Positions 1 to 16,817 of a stretch of 20,000 bases of DNA are shown one piece after another (the stretch's first letter is position 1; each line of letters starts with the position of its first letter). The stretch comes from an uncultured virus (IMG/VR IMGVR_UViG_3300024261_001453). Taxonomy: Duplodnaviria; Heunggongvirae; Uroviricota; Caudoviricetes. The notes under the pieces were generated by a model. It was not told where the DNA came from and did no database searches. It saw nothing but the letters and a program-made list of their open reading frames with translations. The position numbers were made by a program, and so were the translations under genes. The stretch is taken from IMG/VR virus record IMGVR_UViG_3300024261_001453, one strand, 5' to 3'.

Positions 1-14
1 TTAGGATATATGAA

Positions 15-1607
15 ATGTCCGATGAGTCAAAAATAAATGAGTTATTCAATATGAACAAAAATGAGTTTGTAACAAAAAAACAATTGACTGACTACTCTAA
101 CTACTTAGTTAACGAATTAGCATCAACTAAGAAGACAGTTAATACAGCCATTACTAAAGGTAATGTAGCTCCAAAGAAATTGGAACAATTATTAGAGTAT
201 TATGAAGAGTTAAACAACTCTAATTCAAAAGTAGCTAAGTATCTTGATTATTTATCAGAAAAGGTACAAATAGTAGTTAATGAGAATAAATCATTAAAGA
301 AGACAACTGAGAAATTAGTTAAACATAATGATTATTTAGCAGAAAACTTAGAGAAATCTATTAATTACGCTGAGTATTTAGGTGAAAACTTAGATAAGAA
401 CATTGATTATTCTGAGTATTTAGCTGAGAATTTAGACAAGAACATATCTTATGCTGAGTATTTAGCTGAGAATGTTGATAAAAACATTTCATATTCTGAG
501 TATTTAGCTGAGAGTTTAGATAAGAACATTGCTTATTCTGAATATATCGCTGAGAATTTAGACAAAAACATCGCTTATTCTGAGTATATCGCTGAGAATT
601 TAGACAAAAACATTGCTTACTCTGAGTATATCGCAGAAAACGTTGATAATAATATCGCTTATTCTGAATACTTATCTGAGCATGTTGAAGGTAACATTGC
701 TTACTCTGAGTATATCGCAGAACATTTAGATGATAACATCGCTTATTCTGAGTATGTAGCAGAGAATCTTGACAAATCAATTAATTATCAAGGATTGATA
801 GTTGAGAGATTAAACGGAGATAAATTATTTGAATCTGTTGAAGGATCTGAAAGCTTCCCATCTCTAGACGATGCTGGTTTTGAAGCTTTTGATGATGAAG
901 AAAACAAAGATGAAGAAAATTGTAATCTTGAAGTATCATTAGATAATAATGATGAAGAAAATGGTGTTGAAGAATCTGTTGAGAATACAGATGATTACGC
1001 AACAGAAGAAAACAAAGATGAAGAAAATAAAGATGAAGAAAACAAAGAAGATAAAACTGAAAGCCATGATATGGTAAACGGTGATAGTGATTCTGAATTA
1101 TCTGAATCTATTGATAAACTAATTGAAGAAGCTAAAAAACGAAAAGTTTCTGAAACAACAGATGTGAATTTCTTGAAGTTCATGTCTAAATCACAAGTTG
1201 ACAGCTTTTACGCTTTGTCAAATGACGAACAAGAGTCAGTTAAAGTCCATATAAACGAAAGAGACTACTTTACTCAAAAAGATGTTTTGTTATTGATATC
1301 TGAAGCACTATCAACTAAGAACGAATCTCTTGAAGAGAGAATAATCAGATTGATGCCTGAAAACACAAAGCCAATCTGGGAACAATTAAACGACACTTCT
1401 AAGAAATCTATCTTGTCACAAGCTAGATTATATCCAGAAGACGTTTTAACTACTGAGGCACAAGTTGAACATTTTTGGTCAACTAGAAAGCTAAAGACAA
1501 ATGAGTCTGTAACAAAGAAACTTGTATCACATGAAAGCCTTATCCAAGAAGATAAACTTTCAGATAATGATGTTCAAGCGATAATGGAAAGATTCAAAAA
1601 TATTTAA
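15..1607 (+). CDS. Prohead core/scaffold protein (T4 gp22-like role); possibly the C-terminal part of a longer ORF such as a protease-scaffold fusion
   Basis: Directly upstream of the major capsid gene. Acidic, coiled-coil-like, with 11 tandem 14-aa repeats and a D/E-rich linker. The frame is open to the window edge (AGG ATA TAT GAA ATG from base 3), so the true start may lie outside the window. Confidence 0.75.
   Translation: MSDESKINELFNMNKNEFVTKKQLTDYSNYLVNELASTKKTVNTAITKGNVAPKKLEQLLEYYEELNNSNSKVAKYLDYLSEKVQIVVNENKSLKKTTEKLVKHNDYLAENLEKSINYAEYLGENLDKNIDYSEYLAENLDKNISYAEYLAENVDKNISYSEYLAESLDKNIAYSEYIAENLDKNIAYSEYIAENLDKNIAYSEYIAENVDNNIAYSEYLSEHVEGNIAYSEYIAEHLDDNIAYSEYVAENLDKSINYQGLIVERLNGDKLFESVEGSESFPSLDDAGFEAFDDEENKDEENCNLEVSLDNNDEENGVEESVENTDDYATEENKDEENKDEENKEDKTESHDMVNGDSDSELSESIDKLIEEAKKRKVSETTDVNFLKFMSKSQVDSFYALSNDEQESVKVHINERDYFTQKDVLLLISEALSTKNESLEERIIRLMPENTKPIWEQLNDTSKKSILSQARLYPEDVLTTEAQVEHFWSTRKLKTNESVTKKLVSHESLIQEDKLSDNDVQAIMERFKNI
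324..785 (+). repeat. 11 x 42-bp in-frame coding tandem repeat (consensus YSEY[LI]AENLDKNIA)
   Basis: Units start every 42 nt from 324 (HNDYLAENLEKSIN) to 744 (YSEYVAENLDKSIN), with many synonymous differences. Confidence 0.95.
1005..1049 (+). repeat. 3 x 15-bp coding repeat (EENKD/E)
   Basis: gaagaaaacaaagat gaagaaaataaagat gaagaaaacaaagaa, with a further EENKD copy near 897-911. Confidence 0.85.
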
Positions 1608-1652: not shown

Positions 1653-1670
1653 TTATATATACATTAATTA
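1653..1670 (+). promoter_or_regulatory. Putative late promoter (TWATATATA class) for the major capsid gene
   Basis: ttatatatacattaatta. The identical 18-mer precedes the tmRNA (5820-5837), and the core recurs before other structural-region genes. Confidence 0.65.
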
Positions 1671-1692: not shown

Positions 1693-3423
1693 ATGTCACA
1701 CATTAGAATAGACAAACAAAAAGCTATGAAGAAATGGTCTCCAGTATTAGAGAACATGGGAGTTGCTGGTGAAGATAGATTGGATTGGATGTCAGAATAT
1801 GCTGAATTTCACTCAATCAATGAAAACGCTTACGCAAACGCTTCAAACGTATCGGGTATGGGAGCTGTAGTAGCTGCACAACCTAATTCATTAGCTGGTA
1901 ACACAATTGGCAATTACGCTGACTCAACTGGTTCAGGTGATGTTGGTCAAAACCTTTTACCGGTAGCGATGAAAATAGCAGCTCAAACAATCGGTTTAGA
2001 TTTAGTAGCTGTTAAACCTTCTCCAGGTCCAAAAATTGATTTATTATATATCGACTTTAGATATGATGATGCTCATTTAGGAGATTCAGACGAAAGACCA
2101 CAAGTCTTTAAGATTGCACCAAACGCTACATTTTTAACTACTGGTGCTGGTGGTATGACAGCAGTTATCGCTGGATTAAGAGCTCAATTAGCTACGAATA
2201 CAATCACTGAAACAGTTGGTGGTTTAACTGGTAGAATGTGGAATGATATCACAGATGGTTCAGATGTAGTTGTAGAACCAACACCTTCAAAAGAAGGAAA
2301 AGTTGAATTTTTAGGATTCTCTAGAATTGATGGTTATCCAATGTTCAGAGCTTACAGACAGATGAATACATCTCACACAGATGTTGGTTCAGCTCAAGCA
2401 AACTGGGGATTTGACCCGACTAGAAACACATTTAGTCCTACAATGTCAATGGCTTCTCAAATTACTGATTTAGGAGATGTTACTTTAACTGATGAGCCTA
2501 CTATTGAATTAGTATCAGCTCTTGAAGATCACATTCCTGGTTTCTCTGCAAACTGGATGTCGGATGCTACTGGCCCTGCTGGTAACTATCCAATGGATAG
2601 AGAAATGGACGATAAAAGATACTCTGGTATCATCGGACCAAAAATTAGTTCTAAAACAGTTGCCGTAGGTACTATTGAAGTATCTTCAGCTCTTAGAAGA
2701 ACTGAAATTGAAGATATCAAAGCTAACACTGGTATGGATATCGTTCAAAAAATGGAGTCAATTCTTGTTAATGAATTATCTCAAACAATCTCTAAGCAAA
2801 TTGTTGCTAAGATATTTGAAATGGGTTCACTTAACAGATTATCTGCACCAGCTTATGTTGGAACAGCACCGGCACCATTAGCGGGACAAACAATCTTTGA
2901 CTTAAACACAGCTTATGCAACTGTTGCTGCTGGTAATGGAAACGTTGGTGGTGAAACTACACACGCTGTTCAAAGAAAGCTTGTAACTAAGATAGCTCAC
3001 GCTTCTAACTACATCGCTACAGAGGGACGTGTTGGTCCAGCTCAATACCTTATTACAAATGGGGGATTAGCAGCAGCACTTTCTGATATCTCTGGTTATA
3101 CAATTAACCCAGTGAAATCAAAAATCAATGGTCAAGGTCAATTATACCCAGTAGGTTCAATTGGAGATATTTCAATATATGTTGATCCATATATGAGATA
3201 TAACGACAATAGAATTGCTCTTGGTAGAAAGAACAATCCAGATCAACCAGGTATTATTTTTGTACCTTACTTAATGGCTCAGTCTATATCTGTAATTTCT
3301 GAAGCGACTTTCGCTCCTAGAATGTTACTAAGATCTAGATACGCTGTAACAGAAGTTGGTTGGTTCCCACAAAAACAATTTATGACTATCGAAGTTACAG
3401 ATGTGAATACACTTCTTAACTAA
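1693..3423 (+). CDS. gp23: Major capsid protein, T4 gp23 family
   Basis: gp23-like motifs: KKWSPVLE, LLPVAMKIAAQTIGLDLVAVKP, EDIKANTGMDIVQKMESILVNELSQTISKQI, IYVDPY, GIIFVPY, TFAPRMLLRSRYAV. Highly expressed codon usage; followed by a terminator. Confidence 0.93.
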   Translation: MSHIRIDKQKAMKKWSPVLENMGVAGEDRLDWMSEYAEFHSINENAYANASNVSGMGAVVAAQPNSLAGNTIGNYADSTGSGDVGQNLLPVAMKIAAQTIGLDLVAVKPSPGPKIDLLYIDFRYDDAHLGDSDERPQVFKIAPNATFLTTGAGGMTAVIAGLRAQLATNTITETVGGLTGRMWNDITDGSDVVVEPTPSKEGKVEFLGFSRIDGYPMFRAYRQMNTSHTDVGSAQANWGFDPTRNTFSPTMSMASQITDLGDVTLTDEPTIELVSALEDHIPGFSANWMSDATGPAGNYPMDREMDDKRYSGIIGPKISSKTVAVGTIEVSSALRRTEIEDIKANTGMDIVQKMESILVNELSQTISKQIVAKIFEMGSLNRLSAPAYVGTAPAPLAGQTIFDLNTAYATVAAGNGNVGGETTHAVQRKLVTKIAHASNYIATEGRVGPAQYLITNGGLAAALSDISGYTINPVKSKINGQGQLYPVGSIGDISIYVDPYMRYNDNRIALGRKNNPDQPGIIFVPYLMAQSISVISEATFAPRMLLRSRYAVTEVGWFPQKQFMTIEVTDVNTLLN

Positions 3424-3484: not shown

Positions 3485-3495
3485 TTATATATACA
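3485..3495 (+). promoter_or_regulatory. Putative late promoter, 4 nt upstream of the ATG
   Basis: ttatatataca; TATATA-cact-ATG(3498). Confidence 0.55.
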
Positions 3496-3497: not shown

Positions 3498-3887
3498 ATG
3501 ATTAAAAAGTATAATTATTTCTTTGAGTCTAAGAAGACTAAGTTCCCTAATATTAAGAAAGTTGAAGTAGAAGGATTCTTTATTCATATAGGTAGAGACT
3601 CCAAATCTAACGACCACTTAACATTTAACGTTGCTGATGATAAAGACATCTGGATGCACGCTAAGGGTGTTCCTGGGAGTCATGTTATTATAAGAGTTAG
3701 AGAAAACTTACCAACTCAAGAAATACTAAGATATGTTGCTGAATTAGCTAAAAAGAATAGTAAAGCTAGTAAAGAAGATAATGTAACTGTTGTTTATTGC
3801 CAAAGAAAATTTGTTAAGAAAGAAAGTGGTATGAATGAGGGTCAAGTAAGAGTTGATTATATCAATGCCTACGAAATCGTAGTTTGA
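3498..3887 (+). CDS. Stand-alone NFACT-R (DUF814) RNA-binding domain protein, related to the C-terminal domain of RqcH/FbpA
   Basis: Signature IGRDSKSNDHLT...DIWMHAKGVPGSHVII...AELAKKNSK...VVYCQRKFVKK...GQV. Confidence 0.88.
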   Translation: MIKKYNYFFESKKTKFPNIKKVEVEGFFIHIGRDSKSNDHLTFNVADDKDIWMHAKGVPGSHVIIRVRENLPTQEILRYVAELAKKNSKASKEDNVTVVYCQRKFVKKESGMNEGQVRVDYINAYEIVV

Positions 3888-3890
3888 TAT

Positions 3891-3900
3891 TTAATATATA
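3891..3900 (+). promoter_or_regulatory. Putative late promoter (TWATATATA class)
   Basis: ttaatatata in the intergenic gap before the peptidase gene. Confidence 0.5.
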
Positions 3901-3924
3901 AGATTAATAAAATAAATTTTTATA

Positions 3925-5280
3925 ATGGCAGGAGAAACTAAAAGAGTAAAATTTTCGGATAAATTACTAAAGATACTTAAAAGTATGGAGGATAATAATA
4001 GTTATCTAGCTTTTGAACTTCTTTGGATGAATGATCCAACTGCAAAATATCATAATGGCCTTAATATAACAAATGTTGATTGTGGTACAGATAAATCATC
4101 AGATTTTAATTTCACTGTTGTTATTGGTGGTAAGAAAAATATAATGAAAATTGGTAAATTCATTAGATATTACTTTTCTAATCTATTTAGTAGTGATGAG
4201 ATAACAAAATTTGCTCATGCTTTCAATAGAGTGAAGAATGGTGGTAAGGCTGAACAATCTGGTAAAAAAGTTGAAATACCTGAGTTTAGTTATAATCCAA
4301 AAGACCCTAGGTCTACATTCTTATCACTTGTTACAGAAACATACCCACACCCACATGAGGAGAAAGTTATGAAATACTTACCAAAAGACTTAGATAAAGA
4401 TGAATTTGGTAATTATTATAAAGTGATTCCTGGTGATGATACTACAATGTTTAGTTCTCACCTTGATACGGCTGATAGAAGTCCAGTTCCTACTAACCTA
4501 TTCACTAAAGAGGTAGATGGGGATGAGATAATCTATACTGATGGTAGTACAATATTAGGGGCTGATGATAAGTCTGGAGTTACTGTTATGATGTATATGA
4601 TGGTTCATAATATCCCAGGTATTTATTATTTCTTTATTGGTGAAGAAAGAGGTGGTATTGGTTCTAATCAATTAGCTGATGTTTATGATAAATTTGATTT
4701 CCTAAAAAATGTTAAGAAATGTATTTCTTTTGATAGAAGAAGAACAATTTCTGTTATAACACATCAAATGGGTGGTCGTTGTTGTTCTGATGCTTTTGGT
4801 ACAGGACTTTGTAAAGAGTACAATAAACAAGGACTTAACCTTTCATTGGATAATGGTGGCGTTTATACTGATTCTGCTTCATTTATGGATATTATTCCTG
4901 AGTGTACTAATTTATCTGTTGGTTATTTAAATGAACACACAGGTAGAGAAGAACAAAACATGACATTTTTAATACAGTTGTGTAAAACTTCTATTAATGT
5001 TGATTGGGCTGGATTACCAGTTGCTAGAAAAGTAGGTTTGAACCTTGATTTAGTGCAGAAGCACAAATCTTTAATTGATGTTATAAAAAATGCAGTATTT
5101 GAATTAGAGGTGAAGATGGTTGGGTTTGAGGATAAAATATATATAAGAATAGATTTAGATGATACTAATCTAGTAACTGTTTATGATACTTTGAATATTG
5201 TACAAAACTTACTTGATAAACATAAAGTAGATAGTATGTGTATTTTTACTGAAACATATCTTAAAATAGAATTAACATAA
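3925..5280 (+). CDS. M20/M28-clan zinc metallopeptidase with N- and C-terminal extensions
   Basis: Metal-ligand and catalytic motifs in order: SHLDT, GADDKSG, GEERGGIGS, SFDRR, YTDS, NLSVGYLNEHT. Confidence 0.88.
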   Translation: MAGETKRVKFSDKLLKILKSMEDNNSYLAFELLWMNDPTAKYHNGLNITNVDCGTDKSSDFNFTVVIGGKKNIMKIGKFIRYYFSNLFSSDEITKFAHAFNRVKNGGKAEQSGKKVEIPEFSYNPKDPRSTFLSLVTETYPHPHEEKVMKYLPKDLDKDEFGNYYKVIPGDDTTMFSSHLDTADRSPVPTNLFTKEVDGDEIIYTDGSTILGADDKSGVTVMMYMMVHNIPGIYYFFIGEERGGIGSNQLADVYDKFDFLKNVKKCISFDRRRTISVITHQMGGRCCSDAFGTGLCKEYNKQGLNLSLDNGGVYTDSASFMDIIPECTNLSVGYLNEHTGREEQNMTFLIQLCKTSINVDWAGLPVARKVGLNLDLVQKHKSLIDVIKNAVFELEVKMVGFEDKIYIRIDLDDTNLVTVYDTLNIVQNLLDKHKVDSMCIFTETYLKIELT

Positions 5281-5281
5281 T

Positions 5282-5776
5282 ATGAAGAATATTAAGAATT
5301 ATAAGAAGTTCCTAGAAAAGGAAAATATAAGAGAGGATGAGAACTCATATCTTAATGATGATATTAACGATCCTTGGGGTGATCCAAGTGATAGATGGTC
5401 TGATCGGTCGGATTATGATGATGAGGGTTACCAGTATCTTAATGGTGGTGAGTCTAGATCTAGTGAGGATGATAATGATGATAGAGATGATGTTCAACAT
5501 TTACTTTACTTGTTAAGAACAATGTTTAAGAACAATGGTATTGAGGTTGAAATAGAACATAAGAACTTAGATATTATGATATATTGTGTTATGAATAGAA
5601 AGGAAAGATTAAAAGATGTTATTAATGTTTTAGATGTGGCTAATAAATTGAAGAAGGATGTATTACCACAATATGATTGTGAGTTTGAGATGTGGGAAAC
5701 TAGAAAAGGTAAACCAATGTTAACCTTTAACTTCTTTTATGATGAAGGTTTGAACGATGATCGTGTTCCATTTTAA
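5282..5776 (+). CDS. Hypothetical protein with an acidic N-terminal half and a capsid-targeting-like leader
   Basis: Starts 1 nt after the peptidase stop; begins MKNIKNYKKFLE. Confidence 0.75.
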   Translation: MKNIKNYKKFLEKENIREDENSYLNDDINDPWGDPSDRWSDRSDYDDEGYQYLNGGESRSSEDDNDDRDDVQHLLYLLRTMFKNNGIEVEIEHKNLDIMIYCVMNRKERLKDVINVLDVANKLKKDVLPQYDCEFEMWETRKGKPMLTFNFFYDEGLNDDRVPF

Positions 5777-5819
5777 CTATAAACAATCCATTTTAACAAC
5801 TTTTAAATATTTTAGTATA

Positions 5820-5837
5820 TTATATATACATTAATTA
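5820..5837 (+). promoter_or_regulatory. Putative late promoter for the tmRNA
   Basis: 18/18 identity to the element upstream of the capsid gene; ends 9 nt before the tmRNA 5' G. Confidence 0.65.
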
Positions 5838-5846
5838 CAAACACTT

Positions 5847-6223
5847 GGGGGTGTCATAGAATAGATTCGCAGAGTAAAGGTAGTTATGCAGGTATCGGAT
5901 TGTTAAATACCCGATTAATAAATTAAATAACAAAACAGTAAACGGAAACGTAACAGAAGTAGCAAGCAAAGAAGATTTAGTATTTGCTCTACAAAACAAC
6001 CTACTTAACGTAGGGGAGTTAGTTGAAGCTTAATAGAGGAAACTCTTGAAAATTTAACAACTGATTTACACAGTTAAAAAGGTAAGACCGTTATTTGATA
6101 ATTTTTAGAAGTCTTTTCAAAAAAATTATCTAGTTTGAAAGTTTAGAAAAACTTTCTAAGCCTGTAAATGAATAATTATTGTTAACTGAGGAAGACACGA
6201 TGGGCAGTACATCGTCATCTCCA
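5847..6223 (+). ncRNA. ssrA: tmRNA (one-piece, phage-encoded)
   Basis: Acceptor stem GGGGGTG (5847-5853)/CATCTCC (6216-6222) with the G3-U Ala determinant and discriminator A6223. T-arm ACGATG-GGCAGTA-CATCGT. Pseudoknot 1 ATCGG(5894-98)/CCGAT(5911-15) plus TTGTTA(5900-05)/TAACAA(5928-33). GCAGG/CCTGT helix. Internal tag frame closed by TAA TAG; ~377 nt in an ORF-free gap. Confidence 0.92.
5944..6033 (+). other. tmRNA tag reading frame: GNVTEVASKEDLVFALQNNLLNVGELVEA*
   Basis: Resume context TAAAC|GGA matches the UA-R-N-N|G pattern (E. coli UAGUC|GCA) just after PK1; tandem stops at 6031-6036. The resume codon is inferred. Confidence 0.7.
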
Positions 6224-6229
6224 CAAGAG

Positions 6230-6258
6230 CCGATTGAATACTTTCAATTGGATTTTTT
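6230..6258 (+). terminator. Hairpin/terminator 1 after the tmRNA
   Basis: ccgattgaa-tact-ttcaattgg followed by atttttt. Confidence 0.6.
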
Positions 6259-6291
6259 AACCTCACTTCCTACATGGGAGTGAGGTTTTTT
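6259..6291 (+). terminator. Intrinsic terminator 2 after the tmRNA
   Basis: aacctcacttcc-tacat-gggagtgaggtt followed by a T-tract. Confidence 0.85.
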
Positions 6292-6324
6292 AATGCTATA
6301 GAACTATGACGTATTGTTTTTGAT

Positions 6325-6351
6325 AAACTAATCTATTATTTTAAATATAAT
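6325..6351 (+). promoter_or_regulatory. Putative early/middle promoter AAAC-N17-TATAAT
   Basis: AAAC at 6325-28, TATAAT at 6346-51, then agtt-ATG. The same architecture is found at four other sites. Confidence 0.55.
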
Positions 6352-6355
6352 AGTT

Positions 6356-6832
6356 ATGATTAATAAATTCGAAGGTCGCTGGAGATTTCTATCAAACTTC
6401 TATCCGTGTGTGGTAGAACACCAAGGTATATCATATCCATCAAATGAACATTATTATGTTGCTATGAAAGTGACGGATGAACAATTTATTAATGGTAGAT
6501 ATTATACCGCTGGTGATTTCAGAGAAATGATAGCGACAATACCAAGTGCTGCTATTGCTAAAAAGTTAGGACAGAAAATAAAGGTTCGTAAAGATTGGGA
6601 AGTTAAGAAGATTGAATTTATGAACTGGGGTGTTAGAGAAAAATTTAATAACAACTCAACTCTTCGAGAATTATTATTATCAACTGGTGACGATGAACTA
6701 ATCGAGGGTAATTTTCATAAAGATACTTTTTGGGGAGTTTGTAATGGAAAGGGTAAAAACCATCTTGGTAAAATTCTTATGGAAGTAAGAAGAGAGTTGA
6801 GAGGTGAGAAGAGAGTTGGTCTGTTTATTTGA
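6356..6832 (+). CDS. NADAR (YbiA-like) family protein
   Basis: FLSNFYP, YPSNEHYYVAMK, AKKLG, REKF, LLSTGDDELIEGN, DTFWG, GKNHLGKILMEVR. Confidence 0.92.
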   Translation: MINKFEGRWRFLSNFYPCVVEHQGISYPSNEHYYVAMKVTDEQFINGRYYTAGDFREMIATIPSAAIAKKLGQKIKVRKDWEVKKIEFMNWGVREKFNNNSTLRELLLSTGDDELIEGNFHKDTFWGVCNGKGKNHLGKILMEVRRELRGEKRVGLFI

Positions 6833-6843
6833 ATAAAAAAGGG

Positions 6844-6871
6844 AAACTTTTGATAAGATTGCTTCTATAAC
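6844..6871 (+). promoter_or_regulatory. Putative early/middle promoter AAAC-N18-TATAAC
   Basis: aaac-ttttgataagattgcttc-tataac, intergenic, before the methyltransferase gene. Confidence 0.45.
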
Positions 6872-6926
6872 TAAAAGTAAGAAAAAATATAGAAAATAAT
6901 TTCTAAAAAATATAAAACCAATAAAA

Positions 6927-7898
6927 ATGTCTGTTATTAGCTATTTTGGTGGCAAGTCCTCAAAGGTCTTCCATCAGTTCATCAACACAAGAATACCAAA
7001 AGATGGTATCAAAACTTATGTAGAACCATTCTCAGGTGCAATGGGAACGTATATGGATGACCCAAATCTTAAATTCGATACAGTTGTTTATAATGATAAG
7101 AACCGCCACCAGGTGAACTTATATAAGTGTTGTCAAAATCCAACAGAAATGTTGATACATATAGATAATCTAAAGAGTGGTTTATTACACACAACAGAAA
7201 CGGATCCAATAAAAAATTGGGATTTTTATAAAGCTATTTATAAGACATTTCAAAAGAATGATTTCTTAGATGATATGGATTTTGAGATTGGGGATTATGA
7301 AAAAGCTGCTATGTATGCTTTCTTAATTACATCAGCTCATAATTCAGTTTATCCAAGAGGAGCAGGGTTTAATGGTTATAAGAAGAATAATGGCAAACTT
7401 AAAATAGAAGCACTTGTTAATAAACTAAAGAAGGGTAAGTACACAGAGAAATTGGAATCAATTACTGAGTTCTATAATATTGATTTTGAGGAATTGATAA
7501 ACAAATATGATTCAGTAGATACATTTCTTTACTTAGACCCACCTTACGCTAGATTTGACGAGGCTAAAGGAATGGATGATGCTAGGAGACTATTCTGGTA
7601 TGGATGTGATGATGAAGGTGTCTTTGGACCCGAATCACATAGAAGGTTATTAGAAATGCTTAAAAAGACTGATTGTAGATGGTCATTATCTTATTATTAC
7701 TTTCCTTTATTAGAAGAATTATTACCAAGAGACCAATATAACTGGGTTGAGAAAGAAGTATTTAGAAGTTCTGCTCATGGTGGTAACAATTCGGATAATA
7801 AAAAGGTACAAGCTAAAGGTGTTGAGATGCTTATTATGAATTATAATCCAGAAACGGGAGAAAAAATCACTAATAAGGATGTCGAATGTGAACTTTAA
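6927..7898 (+). CDS. DNA N6-adenine methyltransferase, Dam/D12 class (target site not determinable)
   Basis: YFGGKS, YVEPFSGAMG (SAM-binding motif), YNDKN, FLYLDPPY (catalytic motif), terminal EMLIMNY. Confidence 0.92.
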   Translation: MSVISYFGGKSSKVFHQFINTRIPKDGIKTYVEPFSGAMGTYMDDPNLKFDTVVYNDKNRHQVNLYKCCQNPTEMLIHIDNLKSGLLHTTETDPIKNWDFYKAIYKTFQKNDFLDDMDFEIGDYEKAAMYAFLITSAHNSVYPRGAGFNGYKKNNGKLKIEALVNKLKKGKYTEKLESITEFYNIDFEELINKYDSVDTFLYLDPPYARFDEAKGMDDARRLFWYGCDDEGVFGPESHRRLLEMLKKTDCRWSLSYYYFPLLEELLPRDQYNWVEKEVFRSSAHGGNNSDNKKVQAKGVEMLIMNYNPETGEKITNKDVECEL

Positions 7899-8631: not shown

Positions 8632-8836
8632 TAATACATTCCAGGTGAATTCGGCTTCTAATAAAAATGCTATTGTGGTTGATCCAGATGGATACACAAC
8701 TATTGATAAATTAATACTTGTTGATCAAAAAGATGGAACTAAGTGGGATTTTTCAATTTATGATGGTGAGGTATTAGTTGAGCCACATGGTAAATCAGAA
8801 AAAAGAGAATATAGAATCAATAAGGTTATTTCTTAA
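8615..8836 (+). CDS. Small hypothetical protein (73 aa)
   Basis: Overlaps the upstream stop region; plausible composition; ends REYRINKVIS. Confidence 0.65.
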   Translation: MAQQINNTFQVNSASNKNAIVVDPDGYTTIDKLILVDQKDGTKWDFSIYDGEVLVEPHGKSEKREYRINKVIS

Positions 8837-9284
8837 TTAATTTAATCTTTAAGTTACCATTTCCTTTTATTAGTCTATGATAAACACCCATAGGTATTTC
8901 TACAATACCCTCAATTACTTTTGGAAGTTGATTATCGATTTGAATCATCCAATCAGTTTCATTTATAGACTCTATAATTCTATCTTCTCTATCACGATGC
9001 CAAATAAATTCACCTGAATCAGTTTCTTGTTTAAATTCTCTGATAAATGTATTCTCTGATAACTGTTCTTCAATAAATGGTAATACAACGTCTGGGTTTT
9101 CATTTTGCCATTCTTTCAAAGCTTTCATATCAAATTCTTTTAATTCATTATCATATCCACATTGGTGACATAAATATTTTCTATCATCATTTATTTCAAT
9201 TTCCCAATTCCAATCACAGTTATCACAAGTAATTTCTTTGATTTTAGCGATTTCGAATATTTTATATGTTTCTAAGTGTTTCAT
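8826..9284 (-). CDS. Zn-ribbon plus cupin-like protein with a capsid-targeting-like leader
   Basis: CDNC...CHQC, then WHRDREDR...EIPMGVYHRLIKG (cupin-like His motifs); begins MKHLETYKIFE. Confidence 0.7.
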   Translation of the reverse strand: MKHLETYKIFEIAKIKEITCDNCDWNWEIEINDDRKYLCHQCGYDNELKEFDMKALKEWQNENPDVVLPFIEEQLSENTFIREFKQETDSGEFIWHRDREDRIIESINETDWMIQIDNQLPKVIEGIVEIPMGVYHRLIKGNGNLKIKLIKK

Positions 9285-9304: not shown

Positions 9305-9874
9305 TTACCAATACCCAGGGTAGGTTCGCCCATTCCAAAGATGTCCGTATTTCGTGAGACGACAAGCCCAATATCCAGCAGTTGTTCTATCCTTTTTGGT
9401 TGAGCATTTATGTCTAGCCGCGAAGCTCTTTCTAGCATCTGGGTTACTAACTTTAGCTGTTAGTCCACCATGTACATCTCCAAAGGCAAGTTTTTTAACA
9501 TTACCAGTCTTTGGGTTTTTAACATAAACGTGATATTTCTTAGTCCCGCCTCTTTTAGGATAATTTAATTTAACTTCTTTACCCTTATACTCTGCTTCAT
9601 TTAATTCTTGAATATTTTCTATTGGTAAATCAAGTGGTACTAATTCATTATTAAACACTCCGAACCTACCAATATCTGTTGATTCGAATAATTCATTATC
9701 TATATCACACAATTCAACAGTATTAGAATCGAATAACTTTCTAGCTTCTTTTATTACTTCATAAAAAGCATCTGAACCAGGTCTAAAAACATTTTCAGTT
9801 ATAGGTTTAGAACTATCTAAATGGTATTTTAGATTCTCTGATATTTCTTTATATTGATTAAATTTGTGTATCAT
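9305..9874 (-). CDS. Conserved phage protein with a basic C-terminal domain; leader MIHKFNQYKEISE
   Basis: KKYHVYVKNPKTGNVKKLAFG...ARKSFAARHKC...AGYWAC, a motif I recall from hypothetical proteins of aquatic T4-like phages. LNE|AEY junction before the basic domain. Confidence 0.7.
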   Translation of the reverse strand: MIHKFNQYKEISENLKYHLDSSKPITENVFRPGSDAFYEVIKEARKLFDSNTVELCDIDNELFESTDIGRFGVFNNELVPLDLPIENIQELNEAEYKGKEVKLNYPKRGGTKKYHVYVKNPKTGNVKKLAFGDVHGGLTAKVSNPDARKSFAARHKCSTKKDRTTAGYWACRLTKYGHLWNGRTYPGYW

Positions 9875-10290
9875 TCTTCTACTTCATTTTCACCATCACT
9901 TGTAAATTCAGAGAAGTTAATAACACCAACACCATCACTCTCAACACATTCGCATCCGGGGCATCCACATTCACAGCCAGCTTCTCCGGTGCAATTATCA
10001 CAACAAGCACAATCTCCTGATAAAGTTTCATCACTTTCTTCTTCTAATTCATTCTCCATATCAATATTCTCAATATTCTCAATATTATCGATGTTAATCG
10101 TTATGAAGTTTTCAAACTTAACAATCTTATCCATTTCTTTTTTAAATGCCTTATCAACCTTTTCTTGGTCCTCAACAGATGTTGTGAATCCAGGTTCAAC
10201 ATCTTTATCAACTAGTTCTTTAGCATCAAATGTAATTTCTTGTGTTTCTTCTTCTTTTTTGGCTTCATTAAACCTTTTAATCTTTTTCAT
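9871..10290 (-). CDS. Acidic protein with a Cys-rich, metallothionein-like segment
   Basis: Begins MKKIKRFNE; contains CACCDNCTGEAGCECGCPGCEC; 4-nt ATGA overlap with the next gene. Confidence 0.7.
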   Translation of the reverse strand: MKKIKRFNEAKKEEETQEITFDAKELVDKDVEPGFTTSVEDQEKVDKAFKKEMDKIVKFENFITINIDNIENIENIDMENELEEESDETLSGDCACCDNCTGEAGCECGCPGCECVESDGVGVINFSEFTSDGENEVEE

Positions 10291-10298: not shown

Positions 10299-10505
10299 TT
10301 ATTTCTTTTGGTACATTCCTTCCAGTACTTGGTACATAGCATCAACAACTCCATAAGAGTCAACTCCGAAGTCACCTTCATATTTTTCAGCAATTGAGAT
10401 TATATCCTTTTCAAGTTCTTCCCATTTATCTCCAGATCTTTGTTTTTTTAGAACATCATCCCAATTAAACTCTTCACTTTCGTTAAATTTCTTTAAGTGT
10501 TTCAT
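10299..10505 (-). CDS. Small hypothetical protein with a capsid-targeting-like leader
   Basis: Begins MKHLKKFNESEE; TAATG coupling with the upstream gene. Confidence 0.72.
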   Translation of the reverse strand: MKHLKKFNESEEFNWDDVLKKQRSGDKWEELEKDIISIAEKYEGDFGVDSYGVVDAMYQVLEGMYQKK

Positions 10506-10949: not shown

Positions 10950-13900
10950 ATGTCAAATCATAAGAATCTTGTATTTTTCAATAAAGAAGGAGACTACTTA
11001 AACTTTAATTATAGTGAATCTAATGATAGATTCGAAGGAGATATGCTCTTTCACGAAAATTCAACAGATACGTTTAAGACTTATGGTCTTTATACTATGG
11101 AAAATATACCATCTTTTGAGTTTGAATTACCTGGTGAATTAACAACTAAAAAGTTTCAATTATTTAATGAATATGGTTTAAACCTATATGGTGCTAAGTA
11201 TGATGACCAAGATATAATAAATATCGAACCGGTTAATAACGATCCCTCTTTCTACTCTAAATGGATATATGGTATTGACTTTGAATCAAAATTCCCAACA
11301 GGAACACTTATCAAGTTTAATAGTCCTTTATTTGAGTTTAATAATATTAACCAAACATATGCTGTTGTTAGTAGTAAGAAAAATGCTATTATGATTATTG
11401 GGCAGATGGATAATGCTACATTTGAAAGTACTTACTATTCATCATATATTGATGTGAATAGTTATGATAATAAAACGATAACGGGAATTAATGCTGTTGG
11501 TGTTTATAATTATATAGATTCTTCTTATGATAATAATTTATCTGATTGGTCAGAGCCGGATTTTTATGATGAATATTATGTTGGTAAGAAATTAAATTTA
11601 GTTAATACTGAATTTAATGATTCGGTAGTCTCTGTTGAGAATATAGATGTTACAGATCAAGTTCATTTTGAATTCTCAACAAACAATTCTAATTTACCCG
11701 ATGATTCAAATTTTATAATAGAAGTTATAACAAAAACTGATATACCTAAGGTGTATGAAGGAGGGTTAAGTATAACTACTGATAGTAGAATCTATATAAA
11801 TAACGTTTTTAATTACCCACATATACTAAAATCTGGTACGGAATTCAAAATTATAGGATCTGTTGATAATCAAAATTTTTTAAGAGTTTCTAATATACCA
11901 ACATTTGCTGGTAACACACAATTAACATATTATGCTACACAGTCTCAAGTTTTATTCAATAATAGAATATATGAATGTGTAAAAGGTTATACACAAAGCT
12001 TTGCATCACAAACAACATCCTTTGTAACACCTTTAAATACTAATTATTGGTCTAACCCAACTTATGTTAAAGTTGAACAGTCCACGGTTGCAGAATCTTT
12101 ATTATCTGCTCAGATATATTTAACAACAGATAGATATTATTTTTATACTGGTTGGACTAGTTCAGCTGCTGTTACATTAGCGTCTGCTGCTGATAAATAT
12201 AAAGAAGATCTTAAAATATTTAATATTGATTTATTTTATAAAAATAATACATTAAAATCTGATTTAATTTATCCTAGTGATTATGCTAAAGTTAACTTTT
12301 ATCATAGTGAAATAGGTGCTACCTATTCCATCGGCTCTGAATTAAAAACTTCTGAGAGATTGGTTGAGGTTGAAGAAGAATTAAATTATGAATTAAATTA
12401 TGATATATCTGAGAATTTCAAATATAATATTGTTTTTACTGATATTGATGAATTTGGTATACTGGTCGAGGTCAATAAAATGATATATGATGAAGAAGTT
12501 GCCTTTATTTATACCGGATCAATCATTGATATGGAAAGAACAATAGATAGAACTTTAAGATCTTGGTTATCACGGTGGTATTTAAGATTATTATCATTAG
12601 GTATAATAGCTGAATTAAAATATGTAGGTAATTATACTTCTGTATTTTATAATTCAATTGTTTTGAGAACAGAATATCCTAATGTTCCACTTGATATAAA
12701 TAATGTTGAGGTTGGTATAACAGCAAATTATCATATAGAACACTCTAGAGTTTTGTTCGATGACATGGGACCATTTTTAAATATCATAATAAATGATGAA
12801 TCATATTCACAACAAACAATTTATAGTGGATTACTTCCGGATATCCCATCTACTTTATCAGCTTGGATGGAAAAACATTCTGAGATATTAGTCAGCTTCG
12901 AGATTTTCGTAACAAATATTAATAATTTATTGAAATTTGATATTAAGCATTTGGGTAGAAGACTAGATTATACAATAACTACTGGTAAATTAAATATACC
13001 GGGTTTACAAGATTATATAATAACAGAAAAGATATTAGGTAATCATGGTATGTTAATAGCTTCTAATGAGGTTTTACTACCTGATACATCATTAACATCA
13101 TTTGAGGATTCTGGGTTCGCTACGGGTATGGTATTTGCTATAAACAATACATACCATCCATATGTTAATCAAGATTTTAATATACAATTTTTAGACCCAC
13201 AGGTGCTGAATTTGAGTTATCAAGGACCTTTTTGGGGATTAACCGATAGTATTTGTAATTCATCAGCTTTTGTTACATTAGCATTTGATTATGGTTTTGG
13301 CCAAACTGGTTGCCAGCCAATAATTGTACCAACTCAATCTGAGGGTGGTGCGTTTGGCGGAGGTGATGATGGTGCTTCTCCAGGATTACCAATGAGCTCC
13401 TTCGATTTGAATATGTTCTCTTTATCATATAATCTGAATGAATATGTGGTTAATGAATATGATTTAAATTCTTTCTCTGGGACTACCGGATTAGTTGATA
13501 TTAAATATGTTCAGTTATCTAATTCTATGTATGCTTATGGAGATGAATTAGTTGTTATAGATGCTTATATAGGACAATATATAACAACAGTTGCTTTACC
13601 AGGTAATACACAAAGTATAGAGGTTGAATTTAACCCTATAAATAATTATCTTTACTGTTTATCTAAAAACAGTATTTATGTTGTTGATCCTCTTATTAAT
13701 ACCTTGATTAACACAATTTCTTTATCTAATGACGCTTTTGATATCGGGATGAATCCAATAAATGGTGATGTTTATGTTACATATGATAATATACCATATA
13801 TTGATATTTGGGAATATAATAATTTAACTAATATACCAAATCATAATCTGACAACACCATCACCATTAGATACTAAGACGGGAAAAATGGTATTTAATGA

Positions 13901-16817
13901 TTTTGAAGGTGATATGTATATTACAACTAATGCTGATTTGGTAGTTAGAATAGATGGTTTAACAAGAACATTTCAGACGAGTTATGGTGTTACTGGATTA
14001 ACACATTCGATTTTTTATGAACCGGTTAATGAGGGTATATATGTTTATGGATCTGCTAGTTTATGGAAAATAGATAATGGCGCTACACAATCGATTGCTT
14101 TACCATCACAAGCATTCAATGATGTTATATTTAATAATATAACTGGTGAGATGAACGTATCCGATTCATCTACAAATTTTACTAGAATGAATTTAGATAC
14201 TGATTTTTATTTACAAACCGGTGTTTCTAATTATGGGTATTTAATGATAAATCAATTTGATGGTGATGTTTATTTATCATCACAAACATATGATAATATA
14301 CTGGTTTTGGATGGTGTTGATGGTACTGTTAAATATACCGCTCCTGTGAGCGCACAGACGACAAAATTAGTTTATAATCCTGAAAGAAAATCTATATGGG
14401 CAATACAGCCATCTATAAACTCAGTCGTTGAGCTTGATGTTGAGCTTGGTGGTGTTATAAATTTATTACCACCAACATATGATACAATTGAGGATAATCA
14501 ATACGGTACTTTGGATCCAGATTATGAACAAAGAGAAAGTATTTGGTTAAAAACCAGAGATTATATGAGAAGACCGAGAGAAAATTTTGAGGGTGATGTC
14601 TCTGTTAAGTATTATTGGAGGTGGCTTTCTGATAATGTTCCTCAATTCTTCTTATATGATTTTAGTGGTATTCAATTAGATAGAACCACAACTGGATCAT
14701 ATTCTTATATTGGTGAAAGACCTTTAACAGAAGTAGTTCTTAATAAATATCCAAATAGTGATATTAGTAAGGTATCTTTGTCACAATACCAACAAACTAT
14801 ATTCGATAAGGTCGAACAAACATTAAGTTATGTTGATGATGAGGATGATATTTCAACTGATGTAGAACCTTTGCAATTATTTTTGGGATTCAAATCTGAA
14901 AATCCAGGTGCTTTAAGATCTGTATTGCAATTGTATAAGAAAGAAGAAATTTATTTCGATATTATATCGGATACTGTGAATAGTATTACACTTGAAACTT
15001 TGGATATTAATAATGAGAATAAAAGAGGTCAATTAACAATATTAGAATCATCAATTGAAACATTTACTAAAAAGGGATTAAAACCTGGTCAACATATTGT
15101 TGTTTATTTAAAGGATACTATGAATGATGAAAATCAGTATATATCTGGTAATAATGGTATTCTTTTGAAGGTTAGGGAGGTTTATACCAAGACGTTAGTT
15201 GTGGATTTCTTTAATCTATCTTATGACTTCATAGAGTATGAAAATACTGTTATATCGGATTATCCATTTGTCGGTACTAATACTTATTTAGATTTAAGTA
15301 TAAAGGTTGTTGATAGAGAAATAGGTAGGTTCACAACCTATGCTGAGACAGAGGAGGAAGATATTCGATTTAAAGTAGAATTGGGTAATGTTGGTAAATT
15401 AATTGGTCCAAATGAAGTTTTTATATTCAAGGAGTATGATATATTAGAGGGTGGTATAGACTGGCCTTATCTCAATAAGAAGAGAAAGGAGATGTTGATG
15501 ATGAAACATTTGATATATCCTTATATCGGAGCTTATAAGTCTATTATAAATGCGATTAATTACTTTGGTTATAATGATTTACAATTGAATGAATATTATA
15601 AAAATGTTGATCCAGCTTCCGAGAATTTCTCTAAGTTGTTTAAGGTTGAAATACCTGATATATTTGATAATAGTGTTGATGGTTGGGAAGAAAATGACTT
15701 CATAAAACACACAATGCCGAATAATAAATTTGATGGTACAAATTTATTTAATTTAACATATTTTATAACAGATAAAGAGGGTAATAATGTACTCAGTTAT
15801 AGTATTGATGAAATTATTATAAAATTACAAGGATTGAAATTTTGGCTTAAGAATAATATTATCCCATTGACACATAAGATAATGGATATAACAGGTAAAT
15901 CTTATATAAATAATGGTACTTATATAGTACACAAGGTACATGATGTTAGAATATTTAATATAAATCAAGAAATGACACCGATAACATTTAAATTAAATGA
16001 GTCTTATTTATCTCCTGTTAATAGTGGATCTACTGTTTATGATTGTGTTCTTGATTTTTATTCAATAATACCTGGAGTTGGTGCTGAGATTACACCATCG
16101 GAGACATTATTAGAAAAGCCTAAAACTTTTAATGGTTCTAATTTGGTTCTTCCTGATTATTTTAATATTAAAATAAGAACTTATAAAACTTATAAAGAAT
16201 GGGCTCCTTTTAAAACTTATATTACCGGTGATAAGGTTACTTATTATGATAAATTATATGAGTCTGTTATTGATAACAATAAGGTTAAAAATCCTAGAAA
16301 ATATGAAAATGCTACTGAGTGGAATGCTACTGATGGTTACCAATTAACTAATATAGTTCAATATAGAAGAGATTTTTATGTTTATAGTGGTTTAGGTAAT
16401 ACACAATCAATCATCAGTCCTAATTTAGATCCAGGAAATTGGTTAGATGTTACTGAGTGGAGGCAACTTGATTATGATCCTGTACAGACTATAAATGAAT
16501 TTAGATCTGGTGATGATTTGTTACCATTTAATTTCATTATTGATTCAAATATTGACCCGTTTATAGTCATTGAAGTTACATCAGATAATGGATATGGTAG
16601 TGTTTATAGTGATAAAAAAAATTATGAAATTAGAGGATTGAAAGATTTAACAGAACCATATAATCCTATTGATCCAATTGGTCCTTTTGAGCCAATACCA
16701 CCAGTTTATGGAGAACAACCAGCAATTCCTTTCCATGGTGGGCATGGAAACCCACATGGTGAGCCACCAGTACTACCACCACCCGGCCGTGGAGGAATTC
16801 CAAATATTTCGCCGTAG
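10950..16817 (+). CDS. Very large virion structural protein, probably a baseplate wedge/tail component with a beta-propeller and CBM5/12-like motifs
   Basis: 1955 aa, behind a late-type motif. YVTN/YncE-like blades (FNPINNYLY, MNPINGDVYV, FNDFEGDMYI, YNPERKSIW; ~13490-14440). IGAYKSIINAINYFGY resembles the baseplate-wedge GT/S helix motif. W..(K/G)TY..GDKVTY-type motifs near 16200-16440. Confidence 0.6.
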   Translation: MSNHKNLVFFNKEGDYLNFNYSESNDRFEGDMLFHENSTDTFKTYGLYTMENIPSFEFELPGELTTKKFQLFNEYGLNLYGAKYDDQDIINIEPVNNDPSFYSKWIYGIDFESKFPTGTLIKFNSPLFEFNNINQTYAVVSSKKNAIMIIGQMDNATFESTYYSSYIDVNSYDNKTITGINAVGVYNYIDSSYDNNLSDWSEPDFYDEYYVGKKLNLVNTEFNDSVVSVENIDVTDQVHFEFSTNNSNLPDDSNFIIEVITKTDIPKVYEGGLSITTDSRIYINNVFNYPHILKSGTEFKIIGSVDNQNFLRVSNIPTFAGNTQLTYYATQSQVLFNNRIYECVKGYTQSFASQTTSFVTPLNTNYWSNPTYVKVEQSTVAESLLSAQIYLTTDRYYFYTGWTSSAAVTLASAADKYKEDLKIFNIDLFYKNNTLKSDLIYPSDYAKVNFYHSEIGATYSIGSELKTSERLVEVEEELNYELNYDISENFKYNIVFTDIDEFGILVEVNKMIYDEEVAFIYTGSIIDMERTIDRTLRSWLSRWYLRLLSLGIIAELKYVGNYTSVFYNSIVLRTEYPNVPLDINNVEVGITANYHIEHSRVLFDDMGPFLNIIINDESYSQQTIYSGLLPDIPSTLSAWMEKHSEILVSFEIFVTNINNLLKFDIKHLGRRLDYTITTGKLNIPGLQDYIITEKILGNHGMLIASNEVLLPDTSLTSFEDSGFATGMVFAINNTYHPYVNQDFNIQFLDPQVLNLSYQGPFWGLTDSICNSSAFVTLAFDYGFGQTGCQPIIVPTQSEGGAFGGGDDGASPGLPMSSFDLNMFSLSYNLNEYVVNEYDLNSFSGTTGLVDIKYVQLSNSMYAYGDELVVIDAYIGQYITTVALPGNTQSIEVEFNPINNYLYCLSKNSIYVVDPLINTLINTISLSNDAFDIGMNPINGDVYVTYDNIPYIDIWEYNNLTNIPNHNLTTPSPLDTKTGKMVFNDFEGDMYITTNADLVVRIDGLTRTFQTSYGVTGLTHSIFYEPVNEGIYVYGSASLWKIDNGATQSIALPSQAFNDVIFNNITGEMNVSDSSTNFTRMNLDTDFYLQTGVSNYGYLMINQFDGDVYLSSQTYDNILVLDGVDGTVKYTAPVSAQTTKLVYNPERKSIWAIQPSINSVVELDVELGGVINLLPPTYDTIEDNQYGTLDPDYEQRESIWLKTRDYMRRPRENFEGDVSVKYYWRWLSDNVPQFFLYDFSGIQLDRTTTGSYSYIGERPLTEVVLNKYPNSDISKVSLSQYQQTIFDKVEQTLSYVDDEDDISTDVEPLQLFLGFKSENPGALRSVLQLYKKEEIYFDIISDTVNSITLETLDINNENKRGQLTILESSIETFTKKGLKPGQHIVVYLKDTMNDENQYISGNNGILLKVREVYTKTLVVDFFNLSYDFIEYENTVISDYPFVGTNTYLDLSIKVVDREIGRFTTYAETEEEDIRFKVELGNVGKLIGPNEVFIFKEYDILEGGIDWPYLNKKRKEMLMMKHLIYPYIGAYKSIINAINYFGYNDLQLNEYYKNVDPASENFSKLFKVEIPDIFDNSVDGWEENDFIKHTMPNNKFDGTNLFNLTYFITDKEGNNVLSYSIDEIIIKLQGLKFWLKNNIIPLTHKIMDITGKSYINNGTYIVHKVHDVRIFNINQEMTPITFKLNESYLSPVNSGSTVYDCVLDFYSIIPGVGAEITPSETLLEKPKTFNGSNLVLPDYFNIKIRTYKTYKEWAPFKTYITGDKVTYYDKLYESVIDNNKVKNPRKYENATEWNATDGYQLTNIVQYRRDFYVYSGLGNTQSIISPNLDPGNWLDVTEWRQLDYDPVQTINEFRSGDDLLPFNFIIDSNIDPFIVIEVTSDNGYGSVYSDKKNYEIRGLKDLTEPYNPIDPIGPFEPIPPVYGEQPAIPFHGGHGNPHGEPPVLPPPGRGGIPNISP

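Follow-up and report, generated by a model that had tools for sequence, protein, structure and literature searches.

In this stretch of viral DNA (the window, 20,000 nucleotides, corresponding to bases 24047-44046 of the 76.9-kb IMG/VR record IMGVR_UViG_3300024261_001453, referred to below as G000 and rated 19% complete), we found a transfer-messenger RNA (tmRNA) that standard detectors pass over, at positions 5847-6223. It lies downstream of the genes for a major capsid protein, a stand-alone NFACT-R domain protein, a metallo-aminopeptidase and an acidic protein. The initial annotation had placed NFACT-R, an M20/M28-type peptidase and a tmRNA within 2.8 kb and proposed that they form a ribosome-rescue module. 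All three genes are real and lie within that interval, whose last base, 6223, is the discriminator base of the tmRNA; however, they make up no demonstrated single unit. We consider it probable that the window holds a hidden but real tmRNA beside a separate block of capsid, NFACT-R, aminopeptidase and acidic protein genes, with the roles proposed below. The parts of the tmRNA are as follows.

5847..6223, + strand: tmRNA body, one-piece, assigned from comparative structure and tag frame
5847-5853 with 6216-6222: acceptor stem of 7 bp, with G3:U at 5849/6220 and discriminator A6223
5938..6036, + strand: tag reading frame, 31 codons from GTA (5938-6030) or 30 from the next AAC, then TAA TAG
6197..6215, + strand: T-arm, a 6-bp stem around the non-canonical 7-base loop GGCAGTA
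6230-6251 and 6259-6287, + strand: two tandem terminator-like hairpins

The evidence that carries the tmRNA is comparative. A search with a pattern for its 5' end gave 18 viral loci, which together with the window and the loci L001 and L002 yielded 10 distinct sequences; RNAalifold folded these into 72 pairs, 28 of them with compensatory changes. The alignment was enlarged by loci derived from NFACT-R searches to 46 distinct tmRNA sequences, and an nhmmer profile of the tmRNA was used for locus searches; a 15-mer scan of viral contigs was mostly noise, with 56 of 80 loci lacking a match to the profile. In the consensus structure of the 46 sequences 94.9% of 3245 cells are paired; sliding the 3' partners by 1-3 columns lowers this share to 36-49%. 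Changes on both sides were seen in 39 of the 71 pairs, and none of 500 shuffles reached any of five pairing and covariation measures. Such a margin, together with the counts for single pairs, is hard to explain without a real structure.

The individual helices agree with this picture. The seven pairs of the acceptor stem are formed in 98.1% of cells, and its pair 5 occurs as A-U (29), G-C (8), G-U (7) and C-G (2). The G3:U pair is present in 44 of the 46 rows and in every correctly aligned one, the other two (A-U) being out of register by two columns at the alignment's 5' end. The T-arm stem covaries as well, with five of six pairs changed on both sides and up to 21 double changes per pair. 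Helices 2 and 3, including the long helix 2, contribute 25 pairs that are 96-100% paired, 12 of them with changes on both sides. Ahead of the tag frame, in the place of the first pseudoknot (PK1), stands a 5-bp hairpin (helix 4) in which two pairs covary (of PK1, the first stem only was examined).

The tag frame is open for 29-31 codons in all 46 sequences, and every gap within it is 3 or 6 columns long. The 31 distinct tag peptides share a conserved core and all end in Ala or Val; this conservation of the frame does not extend upstream. At the start of the frame a variable codon (GTA, TTA or TCA) precedes an invariable AAY, which may therefore be the resume codon, the triplet before it being the -1 triplet. 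The usual tmRNA resume codon is GCN. Across the 46 distinct sequences covariation and tag frame bear out the assignment of a tmRNA made in the initial annotation, and on these comparative grounds we regard 5847-6223 as a genuine, if unusual, one-piece tmRNA.

With the known SsrA tmRNAs (RF00023) it shares the 7-bp acceptor stem with G3:U, the discriminator A, the T-arm, the long helix 2, a hairpin ahead of the tag, a stop-terminated internal frame and a set of 3' helices; SmpB accompanies it in the genomes of complete relatives. It is unlike them in its T-loop (GGCAGTA instead of the T-psi-C type), in a D-loop region without the usual GG, and in the 3' end, for CCA is unencoded in 45 of 46 sequences, CAA or CTA standing after the discriminator instead (CAA in the window). 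The tag of about 30 codons is also roughly three times as long as that of E. coli. The subgroup formed by L021, L026, L029 and L031 is the only one with a tmRNA that encodes the full CCA end.

The nearest named relatives of the window are uncultured huge phages of 634-735 kb. LR745206 (W01) is 79% identical across 98% of the region and LR756502 (W02) 65.5% identical; LR756504 (W03) and LR756501/3 (LR756501 being W04) are related to the window through the peptidase only. These LR genomes are the largest described by Al-Shayeb et al. 2020 and were placed there in the Mahaphage clade (PMC7162821). Both complete relatives, LR745206 and LR756502, encode SmpB (E 7e-53 and 8e-50), in one strong copy each about 130 kb from the tmRNA, as well as a member of the CCA-adding enzyme family, which fits the absence of a genomic CCA in nearly all sequences. 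An AlaRS-like piece of 292 amino acids (aa) occurs in LR745206 only, and charging is therefore presumably left to the host enzyme. No further tmRNA candidate above 26 bits was found in these two genomes, the remaining matches being tRNA-sized. The gene content of the complete relatives thus supports the view that the phage has its own trans-translation set of tmRNA, SmpB and CCA-adding enzyme.

RNA libraries also hold the tmRNA. In fourteen runs on record as RNA, which come from seven of eight listed studies, 34-49% of the words sampled from a 701-base stretch were present; the tmRNA accounts for 54% of that stretch. Contigs of four RNA runs from four studies were mapped to the window, and three runs from three studies each gave one contig with 0 differences on the tmRNA. 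Two of these contigs (5855-6232 and 5867-6224) lie in the predicted tmRNA bounds; the third (5780-6168) has adapter-like flanks and begins 67 bases upstream of the tmRNA. From the fourth run (X9) came only fragmentary matches that differ from the window and apparently stem from relatives. No contig fell on 5500-5779 in the four runs and none reached beyond 6232 in runs X1, X2 and X5; contigs omit rare sequence, and these gaps are no evidence of silence. The contigs are supporting evidence, not proof, of tmRNA expression.

The surroundings of the tmRNA fall into two blocks, with the following genes.

1693..3423, + strand: major capsid protein, T4 gp23-type (Pfam Gp23, E 2.7e-26; PHROG 138)
3498..3887, + strand: stand-alone NFACT-R protein, 129 aa, of which residues 1-18 are a leader outside the fold
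3925..5280, + strand: MH-clan (PepT/TET-like) dinuclear metallo-aminopeptidase, 451 aa, assigned from fold match and invariant residues
5282..5776, + strand: acidic protein, 164 aa, with the shared N-terminal leader, starting 1 base after the peptidase stop codon
6356..6832, + strand: NADAR-domain protein, which moves with the tmRNA and Dam when the block is inverted
6927-7898: Dam methylase, which accompanies the tmRNA and NADAR in the inverted block

We compared the best 80 of 109 viral NFACT-R loci found. The peptidase follows NFACT-R in all 80, the capsid gene precedes it in 79 and an acidic open reading frame (ORF) follows in 74. The tmRNA was seen in 70 of these loci; the other 10 end 0.2-3.9 kb past NFACT-R and are uninformative on it. 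In 66 of the 70 NFACT-R and the tmRNA share a strand, the tmRNA being 1.9-4.1 kb downstream (median 2.0 kb) with the spread arising through insertions, and in the other four a block of tmRNA, NADAR and Dam is found on the opposite strand. The fixed unit thus consists of the capsid gene, NFACT-R, the peptidase and the acidic protein; the tmRNA stands in a second block with NADAR and Dam, and the joint between the two blocks takes insertions and an inversion. With a promoter-like motif of its own and two terminator-like hairpins, the tmRNA appears to be a separate transcription unit.

All 70 informative loci with NFACT-R have the tmRNA too, but a tmRNA does occur without NFACT-R. No NFACT-R was found in LR756504 or LR756501, both of which have SmpB and a tmRNA (65.2 and 21.1 bits). 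NFACT-R is also missing from G001 (270,756 bp, 89% complete, capsid protein 59% identical), where the tmRNA lies about 5.5 kb from the capsid gene, and from G002 (44.5 kb), again with a tmRNA. The co-occurrence of the two genes, which the initial annotation had named as a check of its proposal, therefore holds in one direction and within one clade; in the other direction they are distributed independently, because four relatives keep the tmRNA without NFACT-R, and independent distribution is among the outcomes that the initial annotation had named as refuting its proposal.

The three copies of a promoter-like motif, the 11-mer TTATATATACA, lie as follows.

1653..1663, + strand: TTATATATACA before the capsid gene
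3485..3495, + strand: TTATATATACA ending 3 bases before the NFACT-R start codon
5820..5830, + strand: TTATATATACA ending 16 bases before tmRNA base 1

These are the only exact copies in the window, all forward, where 0.10 would be expected and none of 200 shuffles reached three; the 76.9-kb record has seven forward and no reverse. The seven bases after the capsid-gene copy are identical to those after the tmRNA copy, so that 18 bases are shared. A late-type motif had been claimed before each of the three genes of the supposed module. An exact TTATATATACA does precede NFACT-R and the tmRNA, and none was found before the peptidase. Upstream of the relatives' tmRNA, AACTTTTTTG, a spacer and TAnnTTTG are found in 27 of 46 sequences, an arrangement that we take to resemble the Bacteroidetes -33/-7 promoter. 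The TTTG part is missing from the copy in the window, and the label 'late-type' is therefore not established.

Several points weigh against the account given so far. ARAGORN reported no tmRNA in the window, nor in the homologous stretches of LR745206 and LR756502, and Rfam at its gathering score found none in the window; when RF00023 was run in E-value mode with loose filters, the end-to-end alignment at 5847-6226 reached 8.8 bits (gathering 47) with E 0.72. The consensus structure was derived from the same alignment that was used for counting, which favours the structure. SmpB was not found in the window's own record, only 19% complete. Among the RNA-library contigs, 5780-6168 begins upstream of the promoter-like motif, and contigs reveal neither RNA ends nor strand, with carry-over of DNA possible. 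Finally, the 70 informative loci belong to one clade (capsid protein 68-100% identical) and count as a single evolutionary observation. We rejected the blank ARAGORN and Rfam results as proof that a tmRNA is absent, the covariation and the tag frame being decisive. The detectors probably miss the tmRNA because its D-loop and T-loop sequences have drifted from the tRNA consensus; L154 and L184, relatives outside the NFACT-R clade, have T-loops of the GGTTCGA type and score 59.3 and 77.7 bits with Rfam.

Huge phages more distant than this clade also have tmRNAs that ARAGORN misses. That of LR756504 (L038, 1501-1857, minus strand, corresponding to 280507-280863) scores 65 bits with Rfam; as we read it, its tag comprises about 26 codons and its T-loop is atypical. 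The candidate in LR756501 (L040, 1501-1844, minus strand, corresponding to 718388-718731) reaches only 21 bits, and a tRNA-like form is not obvious at its ends. Among these huge phages long tags seem to be the rule.

The NFACT-R protein matches Pfam NFACT-R_1 over residues 23-119 (E 8.2e-16, 59 bits, cut-off 29.8) and has no other domain, in line with its earlier description as a domain isolated from the rest of RqcH. Its best solved relatives are residues 456-550 of B. subtilis RqcH (E 8e-15), S. suis FBPS and CCDC25 (E 1e-7). An AlphaFold2 model built from 30 sequences has a predicted local distance difference test score (pLDDT) of 89.9, and Foldseek gives template modelling (TM) scores of 0.74-0.79 to RqcH, FBPS and CCDC25; W52, H54 and the motif G57..H62 are invariant in all 30 aligned sequences. 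With bacterial RqcH (PDB 7AQC, 7AS8 and 8S1U; FBPS 5H3W) the protein shares the fold, 33-35% identity and the D-x-W-x-H...PGSH and NSK motifs. Unlike RqcH, it lacks the NFACT-N, HhH, coiled-coil and M domains and is viral, leader-bearing and encoded behind a capsid gene. With Jlp2/CCDC25 (PDB 7EOE; TM 0.74-0.76) it has in common that NFACT-R stands alone; in sequence it is nearer to bacterial RqcH than to CCDC25.

Each genome holds one NFACT-R match, in open frames of 135 aa (G000 and LR745206) and 238 aa (LR756502). Within a collection of 50,697 phage records only LR745206 and LR756502 carry the solo gene. The other 13 matches there, from records named for Listeria, Enterococcus, Staphylococcus and Helicobacter phages or for faecal samples, were taken as RqcH-type and set aside (33-46% identity, one annotated FbpA). 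A library clustered at 50% identity contains 14 representatives at E <= 1e-30, and several dozen short NFACT-R proteins (~120-245 aa) precede the RqcH-sized ones in its ranking. The distant solo representatives lie mostly on short contigs whose viral or cellular origin cannot be told, and one, with a 370-aa extension, on a contig of 629 kb. A 129-aa frame in the cellular genome L273 was rejected as a solo gene: two same-strand ORFs, of 131 and 294 aa, precede it, and the arrangement suggests an RqcH gene that has been split. The ORF in LR756502 (L002, 2699-3388) was also read as 229 aa with a 100-aa N-terminal extension; further representatives of 217-499 aa carry extensions on either side, and the domain is thus sometimes fused to other parts. 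In the subgroup of L021, L026, L029 and L031, NFACT-R is 36% identical over residues 29-106 and has a 12-residue insertion.

A 2014 survey (Burroughs and Aravind, PMC4075521) gives NFACT-R in three contexts, namely in NFACT proteins, in ThiI fusions and as the solo eukaryotic CCDC25/Jlp2, none of them viral. We found no paper on a phage-encoded NFACT-R in the literature searched. According to a preprint (10.1101/2025.09.04.673968), yeast Jlp2 releases peptides from ribosome-bound peptidyl-tRNA, H44 in its NFACT-R cavity is essential, and the authors pose the question of whether NFACT-R domains with such a histidine form a release-factor class. The phage protein has the W-x-H histidine and a second one 8 residues on (H54 to H62), the spacing of H44 to H52 in Jlp2. 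By analogy with its relatives it most likely acts on stalled ribosomes and is perhaps a Jlp2-like peptide-release factor. Against the latter proposal stand several features. We presume that H54 corresponds to H44 from motif spacing and from the CCDC25 sequence, not from a residue-level alignment. The same histidine is present in B. subtilis RqcH and does not single out a hydrolase, and peptide release is not known for that protein. The C-terminal coiled-coil region of Jlp2/CCDC25 is absent from the phage protein, whose chain stops in the model at residue 129, in the domain's final strand.

From these observations we infer how the two blocks would work. The tmRNA would be transcribed alone, ending at the two hairpins, after which its 5' end would be cut to G1, its 3' end trimmed and CCA added by the CCA-adding enzyme. 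Charged with alanine through G3:U, it would be brought by a phage SmpB, encoded elsewhere, into ribosomes stalled on broken messages, where it would append some 30 residues, the last being Ala or Val, and free the ribosome. In RqcH the NFACT-R domain sits on the large ribosomal subunit. The solo protein would most likely dock on stalled or split ribosomes and either free the peptide from peptidyl-tRNA, as is reported for Jlp2, or occupy the RqcH site.

The leader of NFACT-R may add a further element. It lies outside the fold, which begins near residue 19 of the model, with residues 1-10 at pLDDT <50; its residues E10, K12, K13, K15, F16 and P17 are conserved in NFACT-R relatives. Leaders of this type, 8-12 residues made up of Met, basic residues, an aromatic one and then Glu, in two flavours, were recognized by eye at the start of about 20 of the 87 ORFs of the record. 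A strict pattern matched at 17 of the 87 N-termini, compared with 25 of 1520 internal windows; NFACT-R itself escapes it, and the match to NADAR is probably wrong. Of the 51 distinct acidic proteins listed, nearly all begin with the leader. On the peptidase it is an added N-terminal extension in 8 of 53 distinct sequences (L056, L063, L065, L066, L068, L072, L082 and L102) and is absent from the window's own, and it appears therefore to have been gained and lost as a unit. The small genes that bear it stand partly in tandem arrays; examples are the window ORFs 8826-9284, 9305-9874, 9871-10290 and 10299-10505, all on the minus strand, and G000:C1:72648-74922.

In T4, diverse internal proteins share only a capsid targeting sequence, which is used for loading (PMC3012670). 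Both that sequence and the leader described here are short N-terminal peptides on otherwise unrelated proteins, and the record carries a capsid protein, a portal and a terminase of T4 type. Ahead of the capsid gene lies a 713-aa ORF (window 3-1607; whole, G000:C1:23512-25653) whose N-terminal part has a sub-threshold match to Peptidase_S77, the T4 prohead protease (19.6-22.7 bits against 27), at the same place in three of three genomes; the ORF may be a protease-scaffold fusion. By analogy it is plausible that NFACT-R is loaded into the virion through its leader. The cargo packed into the capsid and injected with the DNA, as in T4, would then be NFACT-R and the acidic protein, joined in some relatives by the peptidase, and NFACT-R would reach host ribosomes at the onset of infection, its proximity to the tmRNA being coincidental. 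The position of the NFACT-R block directly behind the capsid gene, whose upstream motif it shares, the portable and widespread leader and the weak protease match all favour such packaging, and head loading would explain why the block sits there without a link to the tmRNA. On the other side, the strict pattern fails on NFACT-R and picks up NADAR, and the protease match stays below its threshold. The likeness of the leader to the T4 signal is assumed and is not drawn from an alignment. The leader stands on about one ORF in four or five, which sets it apart from the T4 signal and could mean something else. We therefore hold this packaging proposal tentatively, as a serious possibility that we would not yet bet on; it is compatible with the two-block account, not opposed to it.

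Alternatively, NFACT-R could serve as a decoy that takes the RqcH site on obstructed 50S subunits and blocks Ala-tailing by the host, sparing phage or host nascent chains from being marked for ClpXP. Its sequence is closest to the NFACT-R domain of bacterial RqcH. The genomes nearest by ribonucleotide reductase (RNR) belong to the phylum of a Flavobacterium record, and of 301 genomes sampled from that phylum 229 have NFACT-R in RqcH-sized frames. A decoy needs, however, a host with RqcH, and NFACT-R was found in none of the three genomes nearest by RNR, nor in the B. thetaiotaomicron control. In RqcH structures, moreover, NFACT-R is poorly resolved near the A-site finger, and other domains hold the tRNA and the stalk base (PMC8012679). 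We regard the decoy as unlikely.

Still less probable, in our judgement, is a two-armed rescue system in which the drifted tmRNA and SmpB would serve stalled 70S ribosomes, and NFACT-R, loaded into the capsid and injected, would act as a histidine-dependent release factor for obstructed large subunits. If it were true, NFACT-R would be the first member of the Jlp2 class from a prokaryotic virus and would act before phage gene expression, for example against host defences that cut mRNA or tRNA.

The aminopeptidase bears on the module proposed in the initial annotation. The protein has a catalytic domain flanked by an N-terminal one of about 125 aa and by an alpha/beta domain at the C-terminus. 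It has no Pfam match at E <= 0.01, the nearest being M28 with E 0.019 and 15.1 bits (cut-off 21.3), and its score against the NCBIfam PepT-like family (E 1.4e-8, 34.2 bits) is far under the cut-off of 274. It does match PHROG 4191, 'peptidase' (E 7.6e-63), and PepT chains (3gb0, E 6.6e-6), and its model (pLDDT 83.9) is matched by Foldseek to PepT, TET/M42 and M28 aminopeptidases. H179, D181, D214, E240, E241, D316 and H338 are invariant in 32 of 32 relatives and fit the dinuclear active site of the MH clan, the metal and catalytic roles being assigned by analogy. The earlier label of an M20/M28-type peptidase was accordingly right at clan level. The fold is that of the MH-clan aminopeptidases PepT (M20B), TET/M42 and M28 (3gb0, E 1e-9; 2cf4, TMt 0.54). 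The phage protein differs in lying beneath every curated family cut-off (Pfam M20 or M28, NCBIfam PepT), in its extra N-terminal domain and in a C-terminal domain of about 80 aa. About 74 residues separate its PepT-matching segments, against ~180 in PepT, and the PepT lid domain is therefore probably missing.

In a three-part module NFACT-R would release or mark stalled chains, the tmRNA would tag them and the peptidase would degrade the products. The closeness of the three genes, the constant company of the tmRNA wherever NFACT-R is found, the exact 11-mer shared by the two and the presence of RNase R and ClpS in the record all speak for a working connection. All 70 loci come from one clade, however, and even there the tmRNA block is inverted in four and shifted by insertions in others. 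Four relatives have the tmRNA without NFACT-R, two of them with SmpB, and in LR756504 and LR756501 hundreds of kb separate the peptidase homologues from the tmRNA, and the acidic ORF does not come after them. The closest folds of the peptidase are aminopeptidases, which trim the N-terminus, and the tag is C-terminal; nothing ties the aminopeptidase to ribosome rescue or to such a tag. The earlier proposal is thus supported in part only, and we consider the three-part module improbable.

That NFACT-R binds the altered tRNA-like domain of the tmRNA is the least probable of these readings, a faint prospect: NFACT-R is predicted to bind tRNA in ThiI fusions (PMC4075521) and the T-loop has drifted in the NFACT-R clade versus a canonical GGTTCGA in L154 and L184, which lack NFACT-R, but the single clade is one evolutionary event, LR756504 has a T-loop that is non-canonical (by reading) without any NFACT-R, and SmpB, already the known partner of tmRNA, is present.

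The acidic protein has no match in Pfam, PHROGs or NCBIfam, and on this ground we rejected its assignment to SmpB or to another known family. In the Atlas it meets only viral clusters without a name, below 0.9, and it shows no likeness to the ORFs that follow the peptidase in LR756504 and LR756501.

The occurrence of tmRNA and SmpB in huge phages is already known: both were reported by Al-Shayeb et al. 2020, with the tmRNAs assigned by ARAGORN (PMC7162821), the program that finds none in the homologous stretches of two of their genomes. The rows listed from their supplements include at least 17 for SmpB and none for tmRNA, NFACT or DUF814; they are silent on the authors' full findings (PMC7162821). 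New here, as variations on known types, are a tmRNA family that has drifted in sequence and encodes a long tag, and a solo NFACT-R encoded by a virus. Surveys that rely on ARAGORN or on the Rfam threshold undercount the tmRNAs of this clade and record SmpB without an RNA partner. The long, conserved tag of about 30 residues raises the question of what reads it. A stand-alone viral NFACT-R is a context outside those set out in the 2014 domain survey (PMC4075521). If Jlp2-like release holds, the phage protein would be a small and tractable bacterial-side model and a new viral grip on host translation. There is also a negative lesson, namely that adjacency within one clade does not make a module.

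Other genes of the record touch on the same processes.

G000:C1:21026-22930, minus strand: RNase R
6139-6420, minus strand: ClpS
71131-72582, plus strand: TROVE (Ro60-like)
6446-6961, minus strand: HAD domain of 'Swiss army knife' RNA-repair proteins
16208-17056, minus strand: GluRS-like protein of 282 aa

All are given in coordinates of G000:C1. The phage thus devotes a range of genes to the quality control of RNA and protein, and these genes are scattered over the record. A 1955-aa ORF at window positions 10950-16817 (+ strand) has no Pfam or PHROG match.

As to the host, Al-Shayeb et al. 2020 predict Bacteroidetes as the replication host of these phages (PMC7162821). The RNR of the record is closest to Bacteroidota records, at 47-60% identity, in 19 of the 21 loci found, and the sequencing runs that hold the tmRNA are labelled marine. 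The phage is probably a huge, marine one that infects Bacteroidota. Two contigs of 47 and 92 kb (L261 and L264), filed as metagenome-assembled genomes of 'Mycoplasmatales', carry an RNR 52% identical to that of the phage, the other RNR matches being from Bacteroidota; they may be misbinned phage contigs.

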